Source of the DNA: Halorussus marinus
GTDB taxonomy: Archaea > Halobacteriota > Halobacteria > Halobacteriales > Haladaptataceae
Assembly: GCF_004765795.1 (NCBI RefSeq)
Contig: NZ_SBIV01000010.1
Span: forward strand, 1 to 64,000
Length of the DNA: 64,000 bases
Direction of reading: 5' to 3'
Shown here: positions 121-60,346 of the stretch, in pieces
Position numbering within the stretch: position 1 is the first letter of the stretch
Layout of the letters: every line of letters begins with the position of its first letter
The notes under the pieces: generated by a model
What the model saw: only the letters and a program-made list of their open reading frames with translations
Database searches by the model: none
Told to the model about the DNA's origin: nothing
Made by a program: the position numbers and the translations under genes

Positions 121-3100
121 TCAGTTGATCAGCCGAGGCCGGTCGAACGACTGCGACTCGGTGTACCAGGTATCCTCGGTCGCGAAGACCCAGTAGGCCT
201 CACCGGGGTTGAAGTTGCTGACCGTGATGTACTGGTATCCGTTGCCAACCTGGCCGTAGACAGCAGTCGAGCCGGAGACGCCGTCGGACACACTAGCGAG
301 CGCTTCGTTAGTGTTAGCGGCCTGCTGACCTTCCTGCCACTGGCCGACGAGGTTCCAGCCCTCTTCGAGCTGGGTGGCCTGCGGCGTGCCGCCGTCGTCG
401 TAGTCGCTCCCGCCGACGACGTTGTTGACGTTGACTTCGAATTCGGCGGACTCGTTGAGGGTCACGATGTACCCCTGGCCGCCCTGCATCGCGTCGAAGT
501 CCTGCTTGTCGTCAGGCTTCGCCGGGTTGTAGGTCTGCCACTCGCCGCCGTCGTAGGTCATGATGCTGTCGACGTTCTCTTCGCCGCCGAGCTGCGTCAC
601 GACCTCGCTGGCGGAGAGCTCACCGGACGCGGCGGGCACGGACACGAAGTTCGCGCCGGCCGAGAGCTGACTTTCGAGGGTAGCGACCTCGGTGTGTCCC
701 GTCGTGTCGTCGAAGTCGCCGAATCTCTCGTGGACGCCACTGGTGAACGTGACGTTGGGTGCGTCACCGGTCTGCACTGCTCCATCCACGGTTACCCTGA
801 GTTGGTTCGGCGCGGTCGGGTGCACGGCCAGAACGTTCTGAGTGTCGACGCCTTCGACGCTGGCGTCAATCTCGTCCGGCTCTTCGTGGATCGAGACCGG
901 CTCGTTGAACTGGACGTCGATGTGGGTGGTGTCACCGTCGTAGCTGGCGATCTCGGCGTCGACCGGCATCGGGTCGTTCGCATCAACGGCAGTCGAGCCG
1001 AAGTAACCCCAAGCGGACTCACCGCCAACCGCAGTGATGTCCTCCGCGGAGACATCGTAGTCACCGTCGCGCGGGACCTCGTACGTCGCTTCGTACGTGT
1101 AGGTACCGTCGTCGTTCTCGGTCTCCTCGAAGTGGTCCTTGTCGAGAGTCACGTCGAGGTTCTCACCTTCGACGACGAAGTCCTCCGACGAAAGGCGGAT
1201 CGCCAGTGAGTCGACTTCCTCGTCCGCGTCGAAGCTGACAGTGACGTTCTGACCGTCAGCCGAGACGTCTTCGGAGTAGACGTTGAACCCGACTTCGAAG
1301 ACGACCGAATTTTCGATCTCCTTGCCCACGGAGTCGGTCGCGTTGGACCAGATGTAGTCGTTTTCGCTGAGAGCCTCTGCGGTCACGTTCTCTTCGAGCG
1401 TGAGCGTGGCCATGAGGTTCTCTTCGTCGTACTCGACGCCGACGATTTCGTTGTTCTGGTCGCTCTCGTTCTTGTAGGTGAAGTTCGCCGTGGTCAGGTT
1501 TCCGCCGGAGCCGTTGAAGACCTGCTCGGAGAACTGCACCGTGATCTCGTTCGAGCCGTTCGTCGTCATCGCGGGACCGAGCATCTTCGGCGCGTCGCCG
1601 TCGGTCAGGTTGACGCTGACGGACGAGTTCACGCCGTTGCTGAGATCGTCGGTACCGCTAACAGCGTTGATCTGGACGGACTCGTTGTTCAGGTCGGCCG
1701 GCTGGACGACCTCGGTCGTGTGGATCGTGTAGGTCGTGCTCGCGTCACCGTCACCATGATCGGAGATGGAGACGTTTTCACCGTTGAACTCCGCGCTGGA
1801 GACCGGCTCGTTGAACGAGACGACGATTTCGTCAGTGCCCGCGTTCGTCTTGGCGGACGTGACATACGGACTCTCGGTGTCCTTCTCGACCGTGGCGATC
1901 ACCGAGTCGGTGTGCCCCTGAGCCGAGAGGTCTTCGACCTCGACCTTGATGCCGAGGTTGTCAGTGTCCGAGACCGTCGAGAGGTTGAGTTCCGTACTCA
2001 GGTCGAGGTTCTCACCCGGACCGACTTTGCTCTGCGAGTCGTTGATGTCCGCGTTCCCCACGACCGACACGGTCACGTCGACCGTCTCGGACGTGGTGAT
2101 GCTGAGACCACTGTACGGGTCGACGTTGCCGTTGTTGACATCGGCCGCGCTGTCGAGAGTGACCGAGGGACCGGTCGAGTCGCTCAGCGCGACAGCCTCG
2201 GTGCCGACGTTCGCACCGCCAGCGTCCTCGATAGCGCCCTGGCGGGCGTTGACGAGGTCGGTGCCGAGGGCCGAAGCGTCGACAGCGTCGTTGAGTTCGA
2301 GGGTGACGTGCGTCTTGCCCTCGTCCATGTACGAGCCCGTGACCGCGTCGATAGAGCTCGCACCGGCGTCGTTGTCGTCCTGATACGCGAAGTCGTCGGT
2401 GGTGAACGTTCCGTCGTCACCAACCGGGGAGACGCTCTCGTTGAACTCGACGACGACGGTGTTGGTACCGGCGTCAGCGTCGACGGACGTGATCTTCGGG
2501 AGGTACTGGTTGACGTGGAACGTTCCAGTCTCGTTGCTCGCGGCCTCGCCGAGTTCGCTGTCGGACGAGAGCGCGACGTAGTACCCGCTACCGTCGACTT
2601 CGGGAATTTCGAGCTTCTCGTCGATGTTGTCAGCGGGCTCGACGTCGCTTGCCGAGCCGAGGTCGGCGACGTGGACATCGCCGTTTGCGTTCTCTTGGTA
2701 GAGGTCGAAGCTGACAGTGGTGTTGACCTGGTCCTCGTAGTCGTACGTTACGGTGACGTTGTCACCGGGGCGCACGACGTTACCAACTTCGTCGACGGAG
2801 ACGTCGTTGATGTCGGGACCCTCGTCGTTGATGACGACGTAGGCTTCTTTGGTCTGGGTGCTGTTCTCGTTGCCGGCACTGTCGGTGACAGTGACGTTCA
2901 CCGCGTACGCGCCGTCAGTGAGGTTCGCCGAACCGCTATCGTAGTCGTCCAGGTCGATGGACAGCGACTTGCGCGTGTTATCGTCGACGTACTGCGAGTC
3001 GTCGATAGTGTACGCGTAGTCGTCACTCGAACCGTTGAGCGTGACGACGACCGACTCGGTGTTGTTCTCGTAGTAGTCGTACGTCACGTCGAGCAGTTCG

Positions 3101-4914
3101 TCGGACGCCGTACGGACCTCGCTGTTCGGCTTCTCGATGTCGAGCTGGCCGGGCGCGATGTCGTCGATTTCGACGACATCAGTCACAGTCGTATTGGCAC
3201 TGTTACCGAGCGAGTCCGTCACGTTGACCGTGATATTGTAGGTGCCGTTAGTGAAGCCCTGACCGCTGAAGCTATCAGCCGACGCGTTGTTCAGCGTGAG
3301 AGTTTCGGATCCGTCACTATCTGCGAGAACGGTGTAGGTCGCGTTGTTACCGTCACCGTCGGCAAACACGACTTCAACGGAACCGGCACCCATGTTGGGT
3401 TCGTCGAAGCTGTAGTCGACAGTGAGGGAGTCACCAGTCCGCTTGTACTGAGTTTTGGTCGGACTGTCGAGAGAGACATTCTTCGGAGCCGTACCGTCAA
3501 CGTCGAGAGCGCCCTTTTGAACGTCCGTCGCCGTGTTACCTGCCTCGTCCGTCACCGTGACGGTGAGGTTGTAGGTATCAGTACTCAGCCCCGTCGTGTC
3601 GAGGATGATCGAGTTGACACCAACATTCGTAGTCGTGTTGGTAGCGTACTCCTGCCCATCCAAGGTGAGAGCGGCCTTTACCGATGCGACACTGGATTCA
3701 GCATCGCCAGCAGTAAAGGTCGCGTTGACACTAGTCCCGGGCGCAACCGGAGAGGATTCTTTGATACCTTTAGCTGTTGCGGTGGGCTTTTTATCGTCAA
3801 TCCGGAGTGCGTTTGCTTCCTCAGCACTACCAGTTAGACTGCCCGATGTGGAATTTGTCTCGGCTACGATGTCGTAAGTGCCGTTGGATAGCGCAGTCAG
3901 ATCATCGATTGTGACTGAGCTGAAACTTTCGATATCCAGCTTCGTAATTTGGTCAGATCCATTCTCCACAGTGATGTCCACAGAGTTGACTTTATTTGCT
4001 GCGGAGACTTCCACAGTAAGGCTGTCACCACTCTGTAGAATCGCTTGTGAGCTCTGTGTCGGCGAATCAATAGTAACCGGCGGTGTATACGTCACCGCGT
4101 CACTCTTGGTCTTCTCATTCCCGGAGAAGTCAGTAGCAGTGACGGAGACATCGTTATTTCCGTCGTTCGCGGACACGCCCGAGCCATCAGACGGAATCTG
4201 GAAGGTACCGTTGTACGTCTTATCGTTAGACGTAGTCAGTTCCTCCGACTCTCCGAAACCGAATGCACTGAGGTCCGTCGTGACCGTATCGACACCTGCG
4301 TCGGCGTTGTCAGTGGCATTCGCACTGACGTAGAGCGTGTCACCGTCGGTGACGGTATCGTCACCGGCATTGTCGCGCACGGTGACATCGGAGACGGTCG
4401 GCTGAGTGTTGTCGATGAAGTTGAAGTTCGCCGTTGTGCTCTTGCTCGTATCGCCGCTGGTGATGTCATAGGAGACGGAACCGGTGCTGGTCACGCTACT
4501 GGTGTCGTACGTGACATCAAACGAGATCTCGGTAGCGCCGGTCTGGCCGCCATCTGCGAGCGATACTTCGGCCGTATTACCAGCCTGTGAAACTCCGGGA
4601 TCAAGAGACACTTTGTCTGAGTTACCTGTTGCGGCGTTATCAACCTGCTTGATTGTAGCACCTTTGTCAGTTGCCGTCGACAGGTCGACAGTAACAGTGT
4701 CCGTATTGCCGGAGTCAATTGCTATATCGAACGATACTGTTTGTGTGGTCGTACCTTCACTGATGGGGACGTTCCCCGCGCTCCCGCCAGAGAGCGATTC
4801 CGTGTTCGCAGCCGCAGTCCCCGCGAACGCCACGGTGCCTCCGAAGACGGAGACGACCATGAGCGCCGAGAGGAAGACGGCGCGAAGCTTGTCGCGTGTT
4901 TGTTCTCTAGTCAT
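121..4914 (-). CDS. Large secreted surface glycoprotein with repeated Ig-like/beta-sandwich domains
   Basis: Haloarchaeal surface-protein signal peptide (RDKLRAVFLSALMVVSVFGGTVAFAGTAAA). D/T/S/N-rich, with repeated 'Y.I.V.VTD.AGN' and 'V.FNE.V' units and many N-x-S/T sequons. ATG 4914 preferred; GTG 4932 is an alternative. Confidence 0.9.
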   Translation of the reverse strand: MTREQTRDKLRAVFLSALMVVSVFGGTVAFAGTAAANTESLSGGSAGNVPISEGTTTQTVSFDIAIDSGNTDTVTVDLSTATDKGATIKQVDNAATGNSDKVSLDPGVSQAGNTAEVSLADGGQTGATEISFDVTYDTSSVTSTGSVSYDITSGDTSKSTTANFNFIDNTQPTVSDVTVRDNAGDDTVTDGDTLYVSANATDNADAGVDTVTTDLSAFGFGESEELTTSNDKTYNGTFQIPSDGSGVSANDGNNDVSVTATDFSGNEKTKSDAVTYTPPVTIDSPTQSSQAILQSGDSLTVEVSAANKVNSVDITVENGSDQITKLDIESFSSVTIDDLTALSNGTYDIVAETNSTSGSLTGSAEEANALRIDDKKPTATAKGIKESSPVAPGTSVNATFTAGDAESSVASVKAALTLDGQEYATNTTTNVGVNSIILDTTGLSTDTYNLTVTVTDEAGNTATDVQKGALDVDGTAPKNVSLDSPTKTQYKRTGDSLTVDYSFDEPNMGAGSVEVVFADGDGNNATYTVLADSDGSETLTLNNASADSFSGQGFTNGTYNITVNVTDSLGNSANTTVTDVVEIDDIAPGQLDIEKPNSEVRTASDELLDVTYDYYENNTESVVVTLNGSSDDYAYTIDDSQYVDDNTRKSLSIDLDDYDSGSANLTDGAYAVNVTVTDSAGNENSTQTKEAYVVINDEGPDINDVSVDEVGNVVRPGDNVTVTYDYEDQVNTTVSFDLYQENANGDVHVADLGSASDVEPADNIDEKLEIPEVDGSGYYVALSSDSELGEAASNETGTFHVNQYLPKITSVDADAGTNTVVVEFNESVSPVGDDGTFTTDDFAYQDDNDAGASSIDAVTGSYMDEGKTHVTLELNDAVDASALGTDLVNARQGAIEDAGGANVGTEAVALSDSTGPSVTLDSAADVNNGNVDPYSGLSITTSETVDVTVSVVGNADINDSQSKVGPGENLDLSTELNLSTVSDTDNLGIKVEVEDLSAQGHTDSVIATVEKDTESPYVTSAKTNAGTDEIVVSFNEPVSSAEFNGENVSISDHGDGDASTTYTIHTTEVVQPADLNNESVQINAVSGTDDLSNGVNSSVSVNLTDGDAPKMLGPAMTTNGSNEITVQFSEQVFNGSGGNLTTANFTYKNESDQNNEIVGVEYDEENLMATLTLEENVTAEALSENDYIWSNATDSVGKEIENSVVFEVGFNVYSEDVSADGQNVTVSFDADEEVDSLAIRLSSEDFVVEGENLDVTLDKDHFEETENDDGTYTYEATYEVPRDGDYDVSAEDITAVGGESAWGYFGSTAVDANDPMPVDAEIASYDGDTTHIDVQFNEPVSIHEEPDEIDASVEGVDTQNVLAVHPTAPNQLRVTVDGAVQTGDAPNVTFTSGVHERFGDFDDTTGHTEVATLESQLSAGANFVSVPAASGELSASEVVTQLGGEENVDSIMTYDGGEWQTYNPAKPDDKQDFDAMQGGQGYIVTLNESAEFEVNVNNVVGGSDYDDGGTPQATQLEEGWNLVGQWQEGQQAANTNEALASVSDGVSGSTAVYGQVGNGYQYITVSNFNPGEAYWVFATEDTWYTESQSFDRPRLIN

Positions 4915-4970
4915 TTTTGTTTTGTTTGACACGTTTAATGTGCCCCGGCTGGGGAGATATCCAGCCTACG

Positions 4971-4994
4971 TACTGTAGGCACATACTGTCGGTA
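4971..4994. promoter_or_regulatory. Candidate operator, copy A of a 24-bp motif (TACTGTAGGCACATACTGTCGGTA)
   Basis: 18/24 identical to copy B at 5919-5942. Lies between a minus-strand TTTATA box (~5008-5013) and the surface protein start. Confidence 0.55.
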
Positions 4995-5134
4995 TATAGG
5001 CAGAGCATATAAAGCTATGGAAGGGATACATTTCAGAAGCTCTTAAGTAGAGAAGCCTTTGCGACCCCTGCCATCTTAGAGTCGCCTAAACCGGAGACGG
5101 GGGTCAGTAGTTCTGATGTCTTATGTTACAGAAA

Positions 5135-5425
5135 TTAGAGGTTTCCGTCTAATTCAGCTCTGATTAATTCCTCGAACTCCTCCGTCTGACCGTACGTTTC
5201 CCGGTGGTCGAGCACGATCCGCCCCTTCTGAGTGACCTCGTACAGACCGCTGTTTTCCGCGGGGCCAACACGCCGGACCAACCCCAAGCTCGACAGGTGC
5301 GGGAGCCGCGTGTTGATGTATCCGCGATTCTTATCGAGGATCAACGCGAGATTCTGGGCCGTATTTCGGCCCCGATCGTCGAGGATTTCGAGAATCTCGA
5401 AGTCCGTCGGCTTCGCGAGCTTCAT
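5135..5425 (-). CDS. Winged-helix transcriptional regulator, phiH1 repressor-like
   Basis: TDFEILE...RNTAQNLA...NRGYINTRLPHL...GLVRRVGP..NSGLYEVTQKG, a small haloarchaeal wHTH pattern. Confidence 0.8.
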   Translation of the reverse strand: MKLAKPTDFEILEILDDRGRNTAQNLALILDKNRGYINTRLPHLSSLGLVRRVGPAENSGLYEVTQKGRIVLDHRETYGQTEEFEELIRAELDGNL

Positions 5426-5464
5426 CGGTCTCGCTCCGCGAAATTGCCTGAGTGCCGATGCATA

Positions 5465-5488
5465 TACTATAGCTACCTACCGATAGTA
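5465..5488. promoter_or_regulatory. Candidate operator, copy C (TACTATAGCTACCTACCGATAGTA)
   Basis: Same TACT-N6-AC-N-TAC-N5-GTA frame, 40 bp upstream of the wHTH at 5425. Confidence 0.45.
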
Positions 5489-5561
5489 TTCGGTGAGATC
5501 GTACAAAAGGGTTGTGAACGGGAGAAAGAGAGTAGACTTCGAAAGTTTGGAGATCGAGCCC

Positions 5562-5861
5562 TCAGCTCTCGTCGCGTTCTTCCAGAAGATTATCGATTTC
5601 GGCGTCGAAGTCAACGTCCTCGGCGTGATACTTCGATCGGTTCTCCGCCACGGCTCGCCCCTTCTCGGTGATGACGTAGAGCCCGCTGTTGGGGGCCGGA
5701 CCAACCCGCTCGACGAGTCCGTAATCGGCCAAAACCGGCAATCGCGTGTTCACGTAGGCGCGGTTCTTATCGAGTTCGTGAGCCAGATTAACCGCGTTAT
5801 CGCGTTTTCCGTCGGCGAGGGCCGCCAAGATATCGAAGTCTGTAGGCGTAGTGAGTTTCAT
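5562..5861 (-). CDS. Winged-helix transcriptional regulator, paralog of 5135-5425
   Basis: MKLTTPTDFDIL...NLA..LDKNRAYVNTRLP.L...GLVERVGPAPNSGLY, colinear with its neighbour. Confidence 0.8.
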   Translation of the reverse strand: MKLTTPTDFDILAALADGKRDNAVNLAHELDKNRAYVNTRLPVLADYGLVERVGPAPNSGLYVITEKGRAVAENRSKYHAEDVDFDAEIDNLLEERDES

Positions 5862-5917
5862 TAATATACGCTACGTTGCGCTCCAGCGTATAAAGTCGGT
5901 TGATGCCAGCGACAAAA

Positions 5918-5943
5918 ATACTGAGAGTACATACTTTCAGTAT
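5918..5943. promoter_or_regulatory. Candidate operator, copy B; imperfect palindrome ATACTGAGAGTA-CA-TACTTTCAGTAT
   Basis: 12-bp arms with one mismatch, upstream of the wHTH at 5861. Confidence 0.6.
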
Positions 5944-6018
5944 GGAACCGACGAGCGATCGATTCGACCGCTAGAACGGAGGGCAAGGGAGTCTAGAAGT
6001 GGTAGAGTAGGCGCTCTC

Positions 6019-6303
6019 TTAGGATGTATCGGGCGAGTCCTGGAACTCGGCTCCGTCGGTTGCCTGCGCAGCGAGTTCGAGATGTTCGATGATCCGTTCG
6101 TGTTCTTCGATCGCTCGTTCGATGTGCCGGCACATCTCTTCGGAGTCTCCGTCCGCATCAGCATGATAGGTGTAGAGAAGGTGCTGTTCGAAAGCACGGG
6201 AAGAGTGAGCGTTCGCATCGAGTAATGACTTGGCTACGAGCCACTCCCAGTTCTGCCAGTCGTCGCCGTCGGATACCTCTTCCAATATATCGCGTTTGGC
6301 CAT
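6019..6303 (-). CDS. Small acidic hypothetical protein
   Basis: 94-aa acidic, helical-looking ORF with ATG start and an AT-rich upstream region; no recognised family. Confidence 0.6.
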   Translation of the reverse strand: MAKRDILEEVSDGDDWQNWEWLVAKSLLDANAHSSRAFEQHLLYTYHADADGDSEEMCRHIERAIEEHERIIEHLELAAQATDGAEFQDSPDTS

Positions 6304-6487
6304 GTGTCATCAAGTGAACTCTACTCACATATAAAATATTGTCTTTCTGAAATTTAAGCATCGCATACCTCCGCAATTTAAATGGGAAGAGTCATCCGGG
6401 GGAGAACACTACCGACATGGAATCGTTTTAACTATCAATATATTTCGAATCGAAATTCTATTACTGGTACCGCCGCATTCGACGGAC

Positions 6488-8620
6488 ATGGAAACGGTTT
6501 GTGCGAGTGATTATCACGACATCGTACAGGTCGCCGACCCGAGAGTCTCGCCCGACGGCGAGCGAGTCGCGTTCGTTCGGAAGGTACCGAGCGACGACGA
6601 GGAGTACGAGGCGACCGTCTACGTCGTCCCGATCGGCGGCGGCGAACCCCGGCAGTTCACGGTCGCCGAGGGAGTCGACAGCAGTCCGCGGTGGAGCCCG
6701 AGCGGCGATCGGCTCGCGTTCGTCAGCACTCGGGGGGCCGACGACGGCCGCCCGCAACTGTGGGTGATGCCGACCGACGGCGGCGAAGCCCGGCGGGTCA
6801 CCGACGTGGCGGGCGGCGTCTCTCAGATCGCGTGGTCGCCCGACGGGGACAAGATCGCGTTCGTCCAGCAGGCGACGGCCGACGACCGCGAGACGGGTCG
6901 GGACACCGGGCTCGACGGCGAGGAGTACGAGCCCGACCAGCCCGACCCCCGCGTCATCGACCGGATGGTCTACCGGGCCGGCGAGCGGTACTTCGACGGC
7001 CGGCGCGATCACGTCTACGTCGCGGACCTGCGAGCCGACGGTGACGGCTCGGAAGCCGCGAGCGGTCGGTCGCCGCGAGCGGCCGTCCGGCGGCTCACCG
7101 ACGGCGACTACGACCACACGACCCCCGAGTGGGGCGACGAGTCGACGCTGTACTTCGGCGTCCGGCGCACCGGCGATCCCGACGACAACATCGACCTCGA
7201 CGTCGTGGCCTACGACCTCGACGCCGACGGGGAGGCCGAGACCGTGGTCGAGACCACCGCGTGGGGCCCGATGCTGGCGGCCACGGGCGACGGCCGGATC
7301 GCCTACGCGGAGACCCCCGAGGAGAACGCCACGCTCCGACAGACGGAACTGAAGGTGATCGACCGCGAGACCGGGACCGTTACCACCCCGACCGAGGACC
7401 TCGACCGGACGCTCTCGGCGGACGTGTCGGTCCAGTGGGGCCCCGACGAGTCGGAGCTCTACTTCTCGACGCCCGACGAGGGCGACGTCGCGGTCTGGCG
7501 CGCGCCCGGCGACGCGAGCGCCGCCCCCGAGCGCGTGGTCGCGGACGGACACGTCTCGGGCGGGTCGGTCGGCGCGGACGCCGTGGCGTTCGTCAGGTCC
7601 GAGTGGGACCACCCCGGCGACGTGTTCGTGACGACGCGGGCCGGCGCCGAGACCAGACGACTCACCCGCGTCAACGCCGACTACCTCGACGACCGGGCGA
7701 TCGGTCGACCCGAGGAGATCCGCTTCGAGAACGAGTCGGGCGAGCAGATTCAGGGTTGGGTACTGACGCCGCCGGACTTCGATAGCGCGGCGTGGAACGC
7801 CGCGGAACAGTCGAGCGGCGACGAGCCGCGAGACCCCGACGAGCAGTACCCCCTCGCGGTCGAGATCCACGGCGGTCCCCACGCGATGTGGTCGACCAGC
7901 GGGACGATGTGGCAGGAGTTCCAGGTGTTGGCGGCGCGGGGGTACGTCGTCTTCTGGTCGAACCCCCGCGGGTCGACCGGCTACGGCGAGTCGTTCATGT
8001 CCGCGGTCGGCGAGGGCGGCTGGGGGCCGGTCGCCGCCGAGGACGTGCTGGCCGGCGTCGACGACGTGGTCGACCGGGAGTACGTCGACGCGGACGACGT
8101 GTTCGTCACCGGCGGGAGCTACGGCGGCTACATGACGACGTGGCTCGTCGGCCACACCGATCGCTTCTCGGGCGCGGTCAGCCAGCGGGGCGTCTACGAC
8201 CTCAACAGCTTCTACGGGTCGACCGACGCGTTCAAACTCATCGAGTGGGACTTCGACGCGACGCCGTGGGACGACCCCGAGTTCCTCTGGGAGAACTCCC
8301 CCGCGGCGTACGCCGATCGGGTCGACACCCCGACCCTGCTCGTCCACAGCGACGACGACTATCGCGTCCCGGTCAGCAACGCCGAGATGCTCTATCTCAT
8401 GTACAAGAAAAACGGCGTCGAGACCCGGCTGGTCCGATACCCCCGCGAGGGCCACGAGCTCTCGCGGAGCGGCGAGCCCGGCCACGTCGTCGATCGGCTA
8501 GAACGCATCGTCCGGTGGTTCGACGGCTACTCCGATCACCGCGACGTGGCGCCGGCGCTCGAACGCGGCGACGAGGGGCTGTCGGCGAGCGAGGACGATC
8601 CGGAGGCGAACGGCGAGTAG
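6488..8620 (+). CDS. S9 family (prolyl oligopeptidase/acylaminoacyl) peptidase
   Basis: N-terminal propeller repeats (WSPSG, WSPDG), IHGGP, nucleophile elbow GGSYGG, D(Y)RV and EGH catalytic motifs. Confidence 0.93.
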   Translation: METVCASDYHDIVQVADPRVSPDGERVAFVRKVPSDDEEYEATVYVVPIGGGEPRQFTVAEGVDSSPRWSPSGDRLAFVSTRGADDGRPQLWVMPTDGGEARRVTDVAGGVSQIAWSPDGDKIAFVQQATADDRETGRDTGLDGEEYEPDQPDPRVIDRMVYRAGERYFDGRRDHVYVADLRADGDGSEAASGRSPRAAVRRLTDGDYDHTTPEWGDESTLYFGVRRTGDPDDNIDLDVVAYDLDADGEAETVVETTAWGPMLAATGDGRIAYAETPEENATLRQTELKVIDRETGTVTTPTEDLDRTLSADVSVQWGPDESELYFSTPDEGDVAVWRAPGDASAAPERVVADGHVSGGSVGADAVAFVRSEWDHPGDVFVTTRAGAETRRLTRVNADYLDDRAIGRPEEIRFENESGEQIQGWVLTPPDFDSAAWNAAEQSSGDEPRDPDEQYPLAVEIHGGPHAMWSTSGTMWQEFQVLAARGYVVFWSNPRGSTGYGESFMSAVGEGGWGPVAAEDVLAGVDDVVDREYVDADDVFVTGGSYGGYMTTWLVGHTDRFSGAVSQRGVYDLNSFYGSTDAFKLIEWDFDATPWDDPEFLWENSPAAYADRVDTPTLLVHSDDDYRVPVSNAEMLYLMYKKNGVETRLVRYPREGHELSRSGEPGHVVDRLERIVRWFDGYSDHRDVAPALERGDEGLSASEDDPEANGE
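7045..7080 (+). repeat. Partial/variant copy of the in-frame palindromic element
   Basis: Hairpin CGGCT-CGGA-AGCCG followed by CGAGCGG-N7-CCGCGAG; encodes GSEAASGRSPRA inside the S9 peptidase. Confidence 0.5.
7783..7833 (+). repeat. 51-nt double-hairpin element in frame within the S9 peptidase
   Basis: TAGCGCGG-CGTGGAACG-CCGCGG-AACAG-TCGAGCGG-CGACGAG-CCGCGAGA, colinear with 47328-47378. Confidence 0.75.
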
Positions 8621-47157: not shown

Positions 47158-47532
47158 ATGGCCGACTTCGACCCGGAGCGGTTCGAGGACAAGTACGCGA
47201 ACTACTTCAACGAGCTCCAGAAGGCGTACAAGAACGCCTTCGAGCGGATGAACGACCGGTACGACTCCGAGCTCGTCCACGCCATCGACCAGCAGGTGCT
47301 CAACGAGAGCGAGCCCTTCTACGAGAGTAGCGCGGAGCGGAGCTCCGCGGACGATTCGAGCGGGCGGAGCCCGCGAGAACACGACGGCGAGTTCCGCGTC
47401 GAACTCCCCGAGAACCCCGCCGACCGACTGCAGGGCGTGCTCGTCGACGAGGAGAAACTGGACGAACTGCTCGACGTCTACGTCGAGACGATCGAGACCG
47501 AACTGCGCCGCGTGTTCGATTTCGAGAAGTGA
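47158..47532 (+). CDS. Conserved haloarchaeal protein (DUF5783-like) carrying an in-frame insertion
   Basis: MADFDPERFEDKYANYFNELQKAY...SELVHAIDQ.VLNESEPFY. Confidence 0.8.
   Translation: MADFDPERFEDKYANYFNELQKAYKNAFERMNDRYDSELVHAIDQQVLNESEPFYESSAERSSADDSSGRSPREHDGEFRVELPENPADRLQGVLVDEEKLDELLDVYVETIETELRRVFDFEK
47328..47378 (+). repeat. 51-nt double-hairpin element in frame within the DUF5783-like gene
   Basis: TAGCGCGG-AGCGGAGCT-CCGCGG-ACGAT-TCGAGCGG-GCGGAGC-CCGCGAGA, colinear with 7783-7833. Confidence 0.75.
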
Positions 47533-57931: not shown

Positions 57932-60346
57932 TCACTCGTCGTAGTCGCTACCGACGACCTCCCGAATGCGCTCGGCGGTGACCTCGCCGACGCCCGGGAC
58001 CTGTTTCAGGTCGTCCTCACGGGCGGTCATCACCGCTTCGACGGTCCGAAACTCCTCTAGCAACGACCGGGCGGTCACGGGCCCGACGTCGGCGATCGAA
58101 GCGACCACGTACTCCTGCTGTTCGGCCAGCGTCTTGCTCGCCTTCTCGCCGTGGACCGACACCTCCCTGTCGTCGGTCTCCTGCTCGCGGGTGGCGATCA
58201 CTTCGAGCAGGTCGGCGGTGTCGTCCTCGTCTCTGGTTCGGAGCACGCTCGCCCCGAAGTCGACCGCCAGCGACGACAGCGCGCCTCGGATCGCGTTCGG
58301 GTGGACGTTGCGCTCCTCGTAGAGTTCGCCGCCCTCGAGGATCAGGACCGGCCGAGCGTAGTGGCGCGTCGCGTCGCCGACCTGCTCGAACAGCGACCGG
58401 TCGCCGCCGGTCAGGGTGTCCAGAAAGTCCGATACGGACTTGCGCTCGACCACCACGCGGTCGCTGAGGACGTAGTCGCCGACCGAGAGGGTCTCGAGAC
58501 GGGTCTCGATCCCCTCGCGGGTCGAGAGGTCCCGCGCGATCGTCGAGTCGAGTTCGCGCTGGTCGGCCACGATCTCGACCGTCCCGTCGTCCGGGGCGGC
58601 CGTCGCGACCGCGCCGGCGTCGGCTTCGTCTGTTCCGCCGTCGTCGGGGTCCGCGTCGTCTGGTCCGTCGGCGCCGGCATCGCTCGACTCGTCGCTCGAA
58701 TCGAACGCCTGTAAGCCGGGCTCGACGTCGGTTCCCGAGGCTTCGGCCTCGCCGGCGTCGAAGTCCCCGAGCCGGCGCTGGGAGTCGTCTAACTCCGCTT
58801 CGACCTCGTCGGCGACGCCCTTGAGCTTCCGAAGTTCGTCTTCCATCTCGTCCTCGCGGCGCTTCGAGATCCAGAAGTACGCCTCGTCGCGGGTGTCCTC
58901 GGCGAGCAGGACCGCGACCTTCCCCTCGGCCTGCCGGCCGGTCCGGCCCTTGCGCTGGATCGATCGGATGGCGGTCGGGACCGGCTCGTAGAACAGCACG
59001 AGGTCGACCTCCGGTACGTCGAGGCCCTCCTCGGCGACCGACGTCGAGACCAGCACCTCGAACTCCCCGGCCCGGAAGCGATCGAGGGTCTCTTGCTGTT
59101 CGGTCTGGGTCATCCCGTCGCTTCCCTCCTTGTCGCCCTGCCCGACGAACCGCTGGGTGTCGAAGTGCTCGCCGAGGAACTCGGTGAGCGCCTCGGCGGT
59201 GTCCCGTGACTCGGTGAACACGATGACGCGCTCGCCGCCCTCGATCCCGAGCGTCTCGGCAATCCGGATCCGAGCCCGCGAGTACTTGGGGTGGAGGCCG
59301 TCGTAGCTCTCTGCTTTCCGCATCGACTCTTTGACTTTCGGCTCGCTCACGAACCGCTGGCTGGCCTTCGACGCGCCGGAGCTCCGGGCGGCGTTGCGCT
59401 GGCGCTCGAAGTACCGCCCGAGCGCCTCGACGCTCTGGGTCTCGACGTACGTCACCGCGGTCCGGAGCTTCCGGATCTCCGCCAGCGCCGACATCCCCTG
59501 ATATCCCTCCGACTGGTCGTTGTCGATGAGCTGTTGGAGCTCCGCGCGCATCTTCTTGATGTCGGTCTCCGAGAGGTCCGCGCTCGTCTTGCGGGTGATG
59601 CCGAGCTCCTTGAGCTTCGCGAGTCGGTCCTCGACCACCTCGTTGAGCGCGTCCCGAATGTCGAGTATCTCGTCGGGAAGCTCGACGCGCTCCCACTCGA
59701 CGTCGGTGTCGTGGGTGTAGGCGTCGACGTCGCTGTCGTCTTCGGTCATCACCTCGACGTTCTCGATGCCGAGGTTCTCACAGACGTCGAGGATCTCCTC
59801 TTCGTCGCCGCCCGGCGACGCGCTCATCCCGGTCACGAGCGGGTCGGCGGCGTCCTGGTGGTAGCGCTCGGCGATGTAGTTGTACGCGTAGTCGCCGGTC
59901 GCGCGGTGGCACTCGTCGAACGTGAGGTGGGTCACGTCCCGGATGTCGATCCGGCTCCCAACGAGGTCGTTTTCGACCACCTGCGGAGTGGCGACGACGA
60001 TCCGGGCGCGTTCCCAGAGGGCGGCGCGGTCGTCGGGGCTGACCTCGCCGGTGAACATCACGATGTCGTCGTCGGGGATCTCGAGGGCTTCCCGGTAGAA
60101 GTCGGTGTGTTGCTGGACGAGGGGTTTGGTCGGCGCGAGAAACAGGCTCTTGCCCTGCGCGTCCGCGAGCCGCTCGGCGGTCACCAGCAGGCTCACCGTG
60201 GTCTTGCCGAGCCCGGTCGGCAGACAGACCAGCGTGTGTGCGTCCTTGGCCGCCCCCGCAAGCTGGAGCTGGTACATCCGCCGCTCGATGAACTCGGGAA
60301 CGAGGAGCTCGTGGTCCACGTACTGCTGCTCGCCGGTGGTCGCCAT
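57932..60346 (-). CDS. hef: Hef helicase/nuclease (FANCM-like SF2 helicase + ERCC4 + HhH)
   Basis: LPTGLGKT, DECH, SAS, QRKGRTGR, GDY..ERK, tandem HhH. Confidence 0.95.
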   Translation of the reverse strand: MATTGEQQYVDHELLVPEFIERRMYQLQLAGAAKDAHTLVCLPTGLGKTTVSLLVTAERLADAQGKSLFLAPTKPLVQQHTDFYREALEIPDDDIVMFTGEVSPDDRAALWERARIVVATPQVVENDLVGSRIDIRDVTHLTFDECHRATGDYAYNYIAERYHQDAADPLVTGMSASPGGDEEEILDVCENLGIENVEVMTEDDSDVDAYTHDTDVEWERVELPDEILDIRDALNEVVEDRLAKLKELGITRKTSADLSETDIKKMRAELQQLIDNDQSEGYQGMSALAEIRKLRTAVTYVETQSVEALGRYFERQRNAARSSGASKASQRFVSEPKVKESMRKAESYDGLHPKYSRARIRIAETLGIEGGERVIVFTESRDTAEALTEFLGEHFDTQRFVGQGDKEGSDGMTQTEQQETLDRFRAGEFEVLVSTSVAEEGLDVPEVDLVLFYEPVPTAIRSIQRKGRTGRQAEGKVAVLLAEDTRDEAYFWISKRREDEMEDELRKLKGVADEVEAELDDSQRRLGDFDAGEAEASGTDVEPGLQAFDSSDESSDAGADGPDDADPDDGGTDEADAGAVATAAPDDGTVEIVADQRELDSTIARDLSTREGIETRLETLSVGDYVLSDRVVVERKSVSDFLDTLTGGDRSLFEQVGDATRHYARPVLILEGGELYEERNVHPNAIRGALSSLAVDFGASVLRTRDEDDTADLLEVIATREQETDDREVSVHGEKASKTLAEQQEYVVASIADVGPVTARSLLEEFRTVEAVMTAREDDLKQVPGVGEVTAERIREVVGSDYDE

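Follow-up and report, generated by a model that had tools for sequence, protein, structure and literature searches.

The window, by which we mean the entire 64-kb stretch of DNA analysed here, carries two copies of a haloarchaeal DNA repeat of about 54 bases that forms two hairpins. The repeat family is specific to haloarchaea, order-wide and apparently undescribed: a literature search, with most subscription journals outside its coverage, returned no description of it, and the accessible portions of PMC7002104, PMC12306157, PMC12451642, PMC4615843 and PMC3116915 do not describe it. Taken as a whole, the observations are best explained, with a probability that we put at roughly 60%, by a short protein-less mobile repeat of haloarchaea that is filtered by selection within genes and handled in trans by an enzyme that reads the structure of single-stranded DNA.

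The first copy (positions 7783 to 7833, plus strand; E-value 1.2e-14) lies in frame in the gene for an S9 family peptidase (6488 to 8620, plus strand; 710 amino acids, PF00326), to which it adds a net 51 nt, or 17 amino acids at a surface loop. The second, a full 54-nt unit (47328 to 47381, plus strand; E-value 3.1e-16), adds 18 amino acids in frame between two beta strands of a DUF5783 protein (47158 to 47532, plus strand; 124 amino acids). The original prediction was of two colinear 51-nt stretches of one pattern on the same strand and in the same phase, and this was confirmed: 7783-7833 and 47328-47378 are colinear and identical at 37 of 51 nt, share the sense strand and phase, and are the only two places in the 3.76-Mb genome where that exact pattern occurs. 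They encode the peptides SAAWNAAEQSSGDEPRD (copy 1) and SAERSSADDSSGRSPRE (copy 2). When copy 1 was slid over the whole genome on both strands, five placements matched at 32 of 51 nt, none at 33 or 34, and five, the copy itself excluded, at 35 or more (three at 35, one at 37 and one at 39); the genome has a GC content of 66.9% and many chance hairpins. That GC content, the acidic proteins and the named relatives mark the organism as a haloarchaeon. The predicted size of 51 nt holds for the net gain at copy 1, removal of which gives the spacing of the orthologs (132 versus 81 nt between anchors), but not for copy 2, which is a 54-nt insertion (the length difference to 26 of 29 orthologs is exactly 54 nt). 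Both predicted copies are real, and a third had been missed. It lies in the S9 gene as well (7031 to 7079, plus strand), is decayed or shorter, falls within a covariance-model match from 7021 to 7086 (E-value 1.4e-4) and encodes ADGDGSEAASGRSPRA; three relatives have other variants at its site.

The unit consists, in order, of TAG, hairpin 1 (8 bp with a 3-nt loop), a 5-nt spacer, hairpin 2 and 2 nt, and it is 54 nt long in 97 of 111 distinct units; lengths of 52-53 nt were seen in only three of the 111, all at non-coding loci. Hairpin 2 is longer than had been described, with a 3-bp base stem below a tandem G·A/A·G mismatch (the GA columns of the alignment being partly fixed by the chosen anchors) and an upper stem of 4-6 bp, and its base stem covaries, switching between TA and GC (96 versus 9 and 81 versus 17 among the 111 units). 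In copy 1, hairpin 1 (7786 to 7804, plus strand) has an 8-bp stem and a GGA loop and is preceded by TAG, and hairpin 2 (7810 to 7834, plus strand, the last base possibly belonging to the target) has a GTC/GAC base stem, the tandem mismatch and a 5-bp upper stem. The corresponding hairpins of copy 2, both on the plus strand, are at 47331 to 47349 (8-bp stem, GGA loop) and at 47355 to 47379 (TTC/GAA base stem, tandem G·A/A·G, 6-bp stem, GGA loop). The stems are kept by compensatory change. The first reported instance, CGT-GGA-ACG versus AGC-GGA-GCT in the nine variable bases, is as described, and double changes were found in 7 of 16 pairs of a 20-row alignment, which none of 500 shuffles reached and far above the slid controls; as related sequences can beat shuffles, the slid controls and the pair tables weigh more here. 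Single-stranded DNA gains stability from GNA loops and from sheared G·A pairs, and the loop of hairpin 1 is GNA in 77 of 124 collected copies. The earlier argument from the GNA triloop is nonetheless weakened, as the variable loop base is a synonymous third codon position and the loops are inherited.

If the repeat was inserted, orthologs should have empty sites, and the insert was indeed missing from 23 of 29 orthologs of the S9 peptidase and from 28 of 29 orthologs of the DUF5783 protein. At the S9 site, these 23 are 51 nt shorter, four orthologs have variants of their own (net 48, 48, 51 and 57 nt), another differs by an indel unrelated to the repeat, and the last yielded no extractable site. 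At the DUF5783 site, the remaining orthologs comprise one that is 57 nt shorter, one with an unrelated indel and one that is filled. The 17 residues are absent from the matching loop of a solved S9 homolog (8wt1), and the AlphaFold model of the DUF5783 protein places its insert between strands 52-56 and 78-82, with pLDDT below 50 at residues 62-66 and 70-74. Empty orthologous sites exist for all six strong copies in the source genome, the other four being those in the genes for a PUA protein (4 of 5 orthologs empty), a helicase (4 of 5 one unit shorter, the fifth with another indel), chorismate synthase (3 of 5 empty, two with another indel) and SAICAR synthetase (3 of 5 empty, two filled).

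The carriers of an insert do not form groups. On host-gene trees from which the inserts had been omitted, the distribution takes five changes for the five S9 carriers (well-supported branches require at least three) and four for the five DUF5783 carriers (at least two on the same basis), counts that are blind to gain versus loss; bootstrap trees uniting the carriers amounted to 0% for both genes. The five DUF5783 carriers, three of which were fished by pattern, belong to distant lineages and have one sub-variant at the identical base, and their flanks do not group. Recombination that transfers patches, more than one insertion at a hot spot or precise loss would each fit. Filled alleles may also be moving between lineages via homologous recombination.

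A covariance-model scan of the source genome for further structure-conserving copies gave eight at an E-value of 0.001 or below, far above background: the two in the window, one each in the PUA, AAA helicase, chorismate synthase and SAICAR synthetase genes, a 30-nt partial copy in the BtpA gene and one in the leader of the eL15 ribosomal protein. Together with the empty sites and the covarying stems, these additional copies support the proposal of an archaeal, non-autonomous, structure-conserving element that adds in-frame loops. All copies in this genome are diverged and give no sign of present activity. Across the order, the model matched at least 134 of 151 genomes with at least 1,354 matches, up to 35 candidates being scored per genome, and among 128 genomes from elsewhere in the phylum, many of them with lower GC, it matched none. 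A strict pattern run against 185,579 species genomes found 31 stretches, 30 titled Halobacteria and one titled only Methanobacteriota. The fourteen plasmid records that matched all come from haloarchaea, the matches lying under annotated genes that include merA, cobN, lysS and orc1/cdc6. INPHARED phages gave no match to the repeat; in IMG/VR, a loose pattern gave chance-level matches only (best E-value 0.007 in 80 loci), and three stricter patterns gave 0, 1 and 0 stretches, the one coming from a pattern that was one N too long. At the protein level, a profile of the insert peptide had no PDB match and 11 matches among 1.8 billion representatives, being too insensitive for counting carriers, and a single-peptide search gave only ankyrin noise.

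Five weaker or decayed candidates in the source genome, all sense, lie in genes for a FAD-linked oxidase, a RimK-like protein, adenosylhomocysteinase and a desuccinylase and in one further gene, recognised by eye as trpB. The eL15 copy (G000:C2:241419-241479) is decayed and sits in the variable stem-loop of the eL15-Euryarchaeota leader, the empty allele of which is matched by RF03144.

Among 150 distinct collected copies, 116 were genic and 34 non-coding or uncalled, and all 116 genic copies were in the sense direction with hairpin 1 in one phase; the collection consists of best-scoring matches, includes some orthologous sites and relies on a simple gene caller, and is not an independent sample. 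Under random stop-free insertion into the genome's own genes, between 20% (any site) and 44% (SGR^CG) of cases are expected to show this pattern. Read in the frame that is used, the insert is roughly neutral (net charge about 0) with 0.2 bulky hydrophobic residues; for the five other frames the figures are +1 to +3.7 and 1.6-4.2, and these frames are basic, hydrophobic or have a stop at the start. Non-coding copies occur in all four orientations of the flanking genes (11, 8, 5 and 4). The one exception in phase is the partial BtpA copy (G000:C3:264750-264810), which is read in another sense phase (RRHAPRTASG) and is absent from 5 of 5 orthologs. As genic copies are sense and in one phase, and as this is the sole neutral, hydrophilic frame, selection probably filters the insertions, and the frame rule probably reflects selection on the protein rather than aimed insertion. 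Very likely, the repeat inserts widely and purifying selection keeps those genic copies that are a multiple of three, sense and read as the neutral hydrophilic peptide S-A/E-x-R-S-S-A-D-x-S-S-G-x-S-P-R-E, which is predicted to be translated as a tolerated disordered loop; the frame filter and the position in loops are indirect hints of translation.

In the filled/empty pairs listed, the unit splits a codon after its second base, at junctions of the form purine-purine^C (GA^C, GG^C, AA^C or AG^C) that are clean and free of target duplication. Both hallmarks of MITEs, terminal inverted repeats and target-site duplication, are lacking. A 2-bp duplication of GA was considered and is ruled out, as none is seen where the junction is GG^C, AA^C or AG^C. 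The ends of the unit are not always precise: in places a codon is missing or extra (48, 51 and 57 nt at the S9 site). The target preference (S-G-R^C) is weak and largely mirrors codon bias. The base before TAG is A in 35 and G in 16 of 56 single copies, and a conserved target oligonucleotide of 4-6 nt was not found 5' of the unit. By mean percentile (0.41, 43 sites), targets did not clearly exceed their surroundings in structure, and a hairpin at the target is unsupported. The repeat itself is often the target: 45 of 119 copies are nested inside hairpin 2 of another copy, at GAR^CGG. In the clearest case (L112 versus C5), a relative has a 54-nt unit at GAG^CGG, within hairpin 2 of an older copy that stands alone in the source genome. 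Nested inserts span 32-43 residues.

With respect to movement, we propose that the unit would be copied as folded single-stranded DNA, and that a trans-acting cut-and-rejoin enzyme would read the shape of its hairpins. An activity of the HUH/Y1 type would fit best because there is no duplication, hairpins lie at both ends on one strand, the mismatch is strand-specific and self-nesting is exact. We rate the chance of such a mechanism at slightly below even. A bolder version, which we offer tentatively and hold to be rather doubtful, is that the repeat is a haloarchaea-wide 54-nt selfish element mobilised by a single-strand, structure-reading recombinase (not the IS200 TnpA) that would cut just above the tandem G·A mismatch, its sequence having been shaped to encode a salt-compatible disordered linker.

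Searches for the enzyme were negative where they were made. No Y1 transposase (PF01797, NF033573) was found in the source genome, and Pfam found no transposase among 55 ORFs of the window, in agreement with the original prediction that the window has no mobilising enzyme. Y1_Tnp is present in 89 of the 151 genomes of the order, in 14 of the 17 genomes without matches to the repeat versus 75 of the 134 with matches, so that there is no positive association. The covariance model had no real match at 37 loci (30 tnpA and 7 tnpB; best E-value 0.04), and the repeat was not beside the 7 TnpB-like loci. Pfam on 40 of 64 listed neighbours of non-coding copies identified mostly housekeeping genes and no transposase, integrase or HNH/HUH family, and closely spaced copies lie in ordinary genes. 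The suggested link to REP- or IS200-type HUH enzymes is consequently unsupported so far, and no linked HUH, RAYT or TnpA gene lay beside the repeat at the loci covered (the 40 neighbours and the 37 tnpA/tnpB loci). Separately, the sole gene for a DNA-structure nuclease seen in the window is a helicase-ERCC4 nuclease gene (57935 to 60346, minus strand), which we take to be Hef-like; nothing ties it to the repeat.

An unlikely alternative, though the best of those considered, needs no dedicated enzyme: the repeat might have spread by host recombination or repair (gene conversion, hairpin-templated end joining or transfer of patches between species), with GA microhomology at its ends. The unit does end in GA and the A of the left flank (35/56) is mostly part of a GA, yet many junctions (GG^C, AA^C, AG^C) share no GA. 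Host recombination is also in keeping with the varying junction lengths, with the one sub-variant in five distant DUF5783 alleles and with the failure to find a mobiliser, but not with the exact, repeated nesting in hairpin 2 (45/119) and the compensatory stem changes that alter the peptide, which point to structure-specific recognition.

By description, the nearest haloarchaeal class to the 54-nt unit is the set of SMRs and terminal-only PATEs of PMC3119063. In the accessible part of that paper, the Haloquadratum SMRs (SMR-A and SMR-B) are repeats of 80-110 bp with prominent inverted terminal repeats, the mobilisation of which is called enigmatic, and the terminal-only PATEs include 52-bp forms, PATE ends matching those of IS605. 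These elements resemble the present unit in being haloarchaeal and transposase-free, in lacking target duplication and in inserting into palindromes of other elements (PMC3119063, as available), and nested doublets of the unit (about 100-115 nt) come near the size of SMR-A. They differ in that in-frame insertion into host genes is unmentioned in the available text of PMC3119063 and that the ends of the unit are unlike IS605 ends; the unit may nevertheless be identical with a named HqIRS family (HqIRS40-43 or HqIRS55), these having been compared by description only. It is quite unlikely, in our estimation, that the unit is itself a terminal-only PATE, consisting of fused left and right IS200/IS605 ends and moved in trans by an ordinary TnpA. 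The size, the two hairpins on one strand and the lack of duplication are alike (PMC3119063, in the part consulted), as are the near-terminal palindromes without terminal inverted repeats, and Y1_Tnp is common in the order (89/151). On the other hand, the model had no match at the 30 tnpA and 7 tnpB loci, which represent a few IS families, and the palindromes there are unlike those of the unit; the distance from the cut to the foot of the hairpin is 19 and 10 nt in haloarchaeal IS605 ends (boundaries set by eye) versus 3 and 2 nt here; a target motif of 4-5 nt is missing; and the flanks of non-coding copies resembled IS605 ends in 2 of 23 cases versus 2 of 59 and 2 of 115 controls. On the IS families sampled, the PATE reading has largely failed. 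As to the SMR habit of entering IS605/PATE palindromes, the unit had 0 matches at the 37 IS loci and nests in its own hairpin 2, and sister units do sit in IS605 elements.

These sister units, double hairpins of 51-60 nt, were observed inside IS200/IS605 elements at ten IS605-type loci of relatives, in left-end regions and in frame in the tails of tnpB. A 2-bp direct repeat of CG flanks most of them, with ends of the CGTT/CGTC type, and their behaviour is like that of the SMR-A elements in the available description (PMC3119063). At another such locus (L319), a 47-nt unit resembling the 54-nt family sits in the right-end hairpin.

It is very unlikely that the element acts at the RNA level, as a mini-intron spliced by the archaeal bulge-helix-bulge endonuclease or through mobility via an RNA intermediate. 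Such an origin would account for the sense-strand bias (all 116 genic copies), and the top strand folds slightly more stably. But the bulge-helix-bulge intron is ruled out, fitting 0 of 52 junctions; Rfam had no match anywhere in the 64-kb window; non-coding copies occur in all four orientations; and a spliced element has no need of strict frame keeping. Chance similarity or a convergent protein motif, for which a 67% GC genome rich in chance hairpins and a low-complexity peptide might speak, has practically no probability left and is refuted by the empty orthologous sites, the covariation, E-values down to 1e-16 and the 0 of 128 genomes outside the order.

The structure-read mobile repeat that we favour can be set beside other known systems. 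By analogy, and as far as the consulted portions of the sources go, it appears to work like the Rickettsia palindromic elements (RPEs) and the Methanocaldococcus coding repeats (PMC2229807, PMC10969869) and like intragenic REPs (PMC3733652), being a member of none. RPEs, in the accessible accounts, are long stem-loops of 105-150 bp with terminal inverted repeats in one bacterial genus, and they too are palindromic repeats that occur intergenically as well as in frame within a wide range of unrelated conserved genes, no mobiliser being known for either (PMC2229807, PMC10969869); entry into structured RNA, here the eL15 leader, is another likeness in those accounts. The haloarchaeal family shows the dispersed in-frame copies in unrelated conserved genes with empty orthologous sites that mark RPE-like elements. 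It does not have the length, the terminal inverted repeats or the Rickettsia host of RPEs proper, but is a unit of about 54 nt with two separate hairpins on one strand, nests in itself and occupies a whole archaeal order. The coding palindromic repeats of Methanocaldococcus jannaschii (Suyama 2005) are archaeal and have an open frame fused into protein genes, according to the available text of PMC2229807; they belong to a different lineage and were compared by description only, the covariance model having remained empty in the 128 non-haloarchaeal genomes of this phylum.

GTAG REP/REPIN sequences go with TnpA(REP)/RAYT enzymes, and intragenic REP dimers are known, in the portions available of PMC8266576, PMC3733652, PMC3116915 and PMC6006769. 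In the accessible part of PMC8266576, the Stenotrophomonas REP is laid out like hairpin 1 together with its foot, namely TAG, a stem of 8 bp and a loop of 3 nt that begins with G. According to the part of PMC6006769 consulted, archaeal Y1 enzymes are of the IS200 subclass only. RAYT is reported to be absent from archaea. In contrast to REPs, the G of GTAG belongs here to the flank and is usually A in single copies, the tag is not invariant, both hairpins are read on one strand and form no inverted doublet, and the junctions are not CT; no linked TnpA(REP) gene flanked by repeats was found. In cyanobacteria, the small dispersed repeats (SDRs) of Nostoc are 21-27 nt long, structured and self-nesting, and we know of no enzyme for them. 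They resemble the 54-nt unit in being very small, structured and self-nesting, and differ in size and lineage.

The movement of protein-coding palindromic repeats has been an open question ever since the description of the Rickettsia elements, and the hosts of such repeats are difficult experimental organisms. The 54-nt family occurs in an order some species of which are amenable to genetics, its filled and empty alleles are defined to the base, and it brings a built-in target (its own hairpin 2), so that the mechanism of movement becomes directly testable. The phenomenon has precedent; it is the scale, the exact junctions and the tractable hosts that set this family apart. The repeat accounts for common odd insertions in haloarchaeal proteins (loops of the SGRSPRE type), and such indels are homoplastic and poor taxonomic markers. 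If the reading as a selfish element with an unrecognised recombinase is true, the family would be a steady source of new loops in haloarchaeal proteins, with filled alleles spreading between families.

Some further repeats and genes were noted. At eleven intergenic loci the unit is part of larger composite repeats (about 130-300 nt), the cores of which are almost identical at 4-5 loci per genome; one type has CGAGAAAAAAGGT at its end. The composites have the look of host elements in which the 54-nt unit is a passenger. The source genome also has intergenic hairpin-rich repeats at three places (G000:C2:388730, 413966 and 511919), two of which share an identical double hairpin that is related to the sister units in L314 and L334. 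Within the window, positions 121 to 6487 include lower-GC stretches (50-54% in gaps) and a 1,603-aa acidic, secreted-looking protein with no Pfam match, and two similar small DNA-binding-like ORFs (5135 to 5425 and 5562 to 5861, minus strand) lie directly upstream of the S9 gene.
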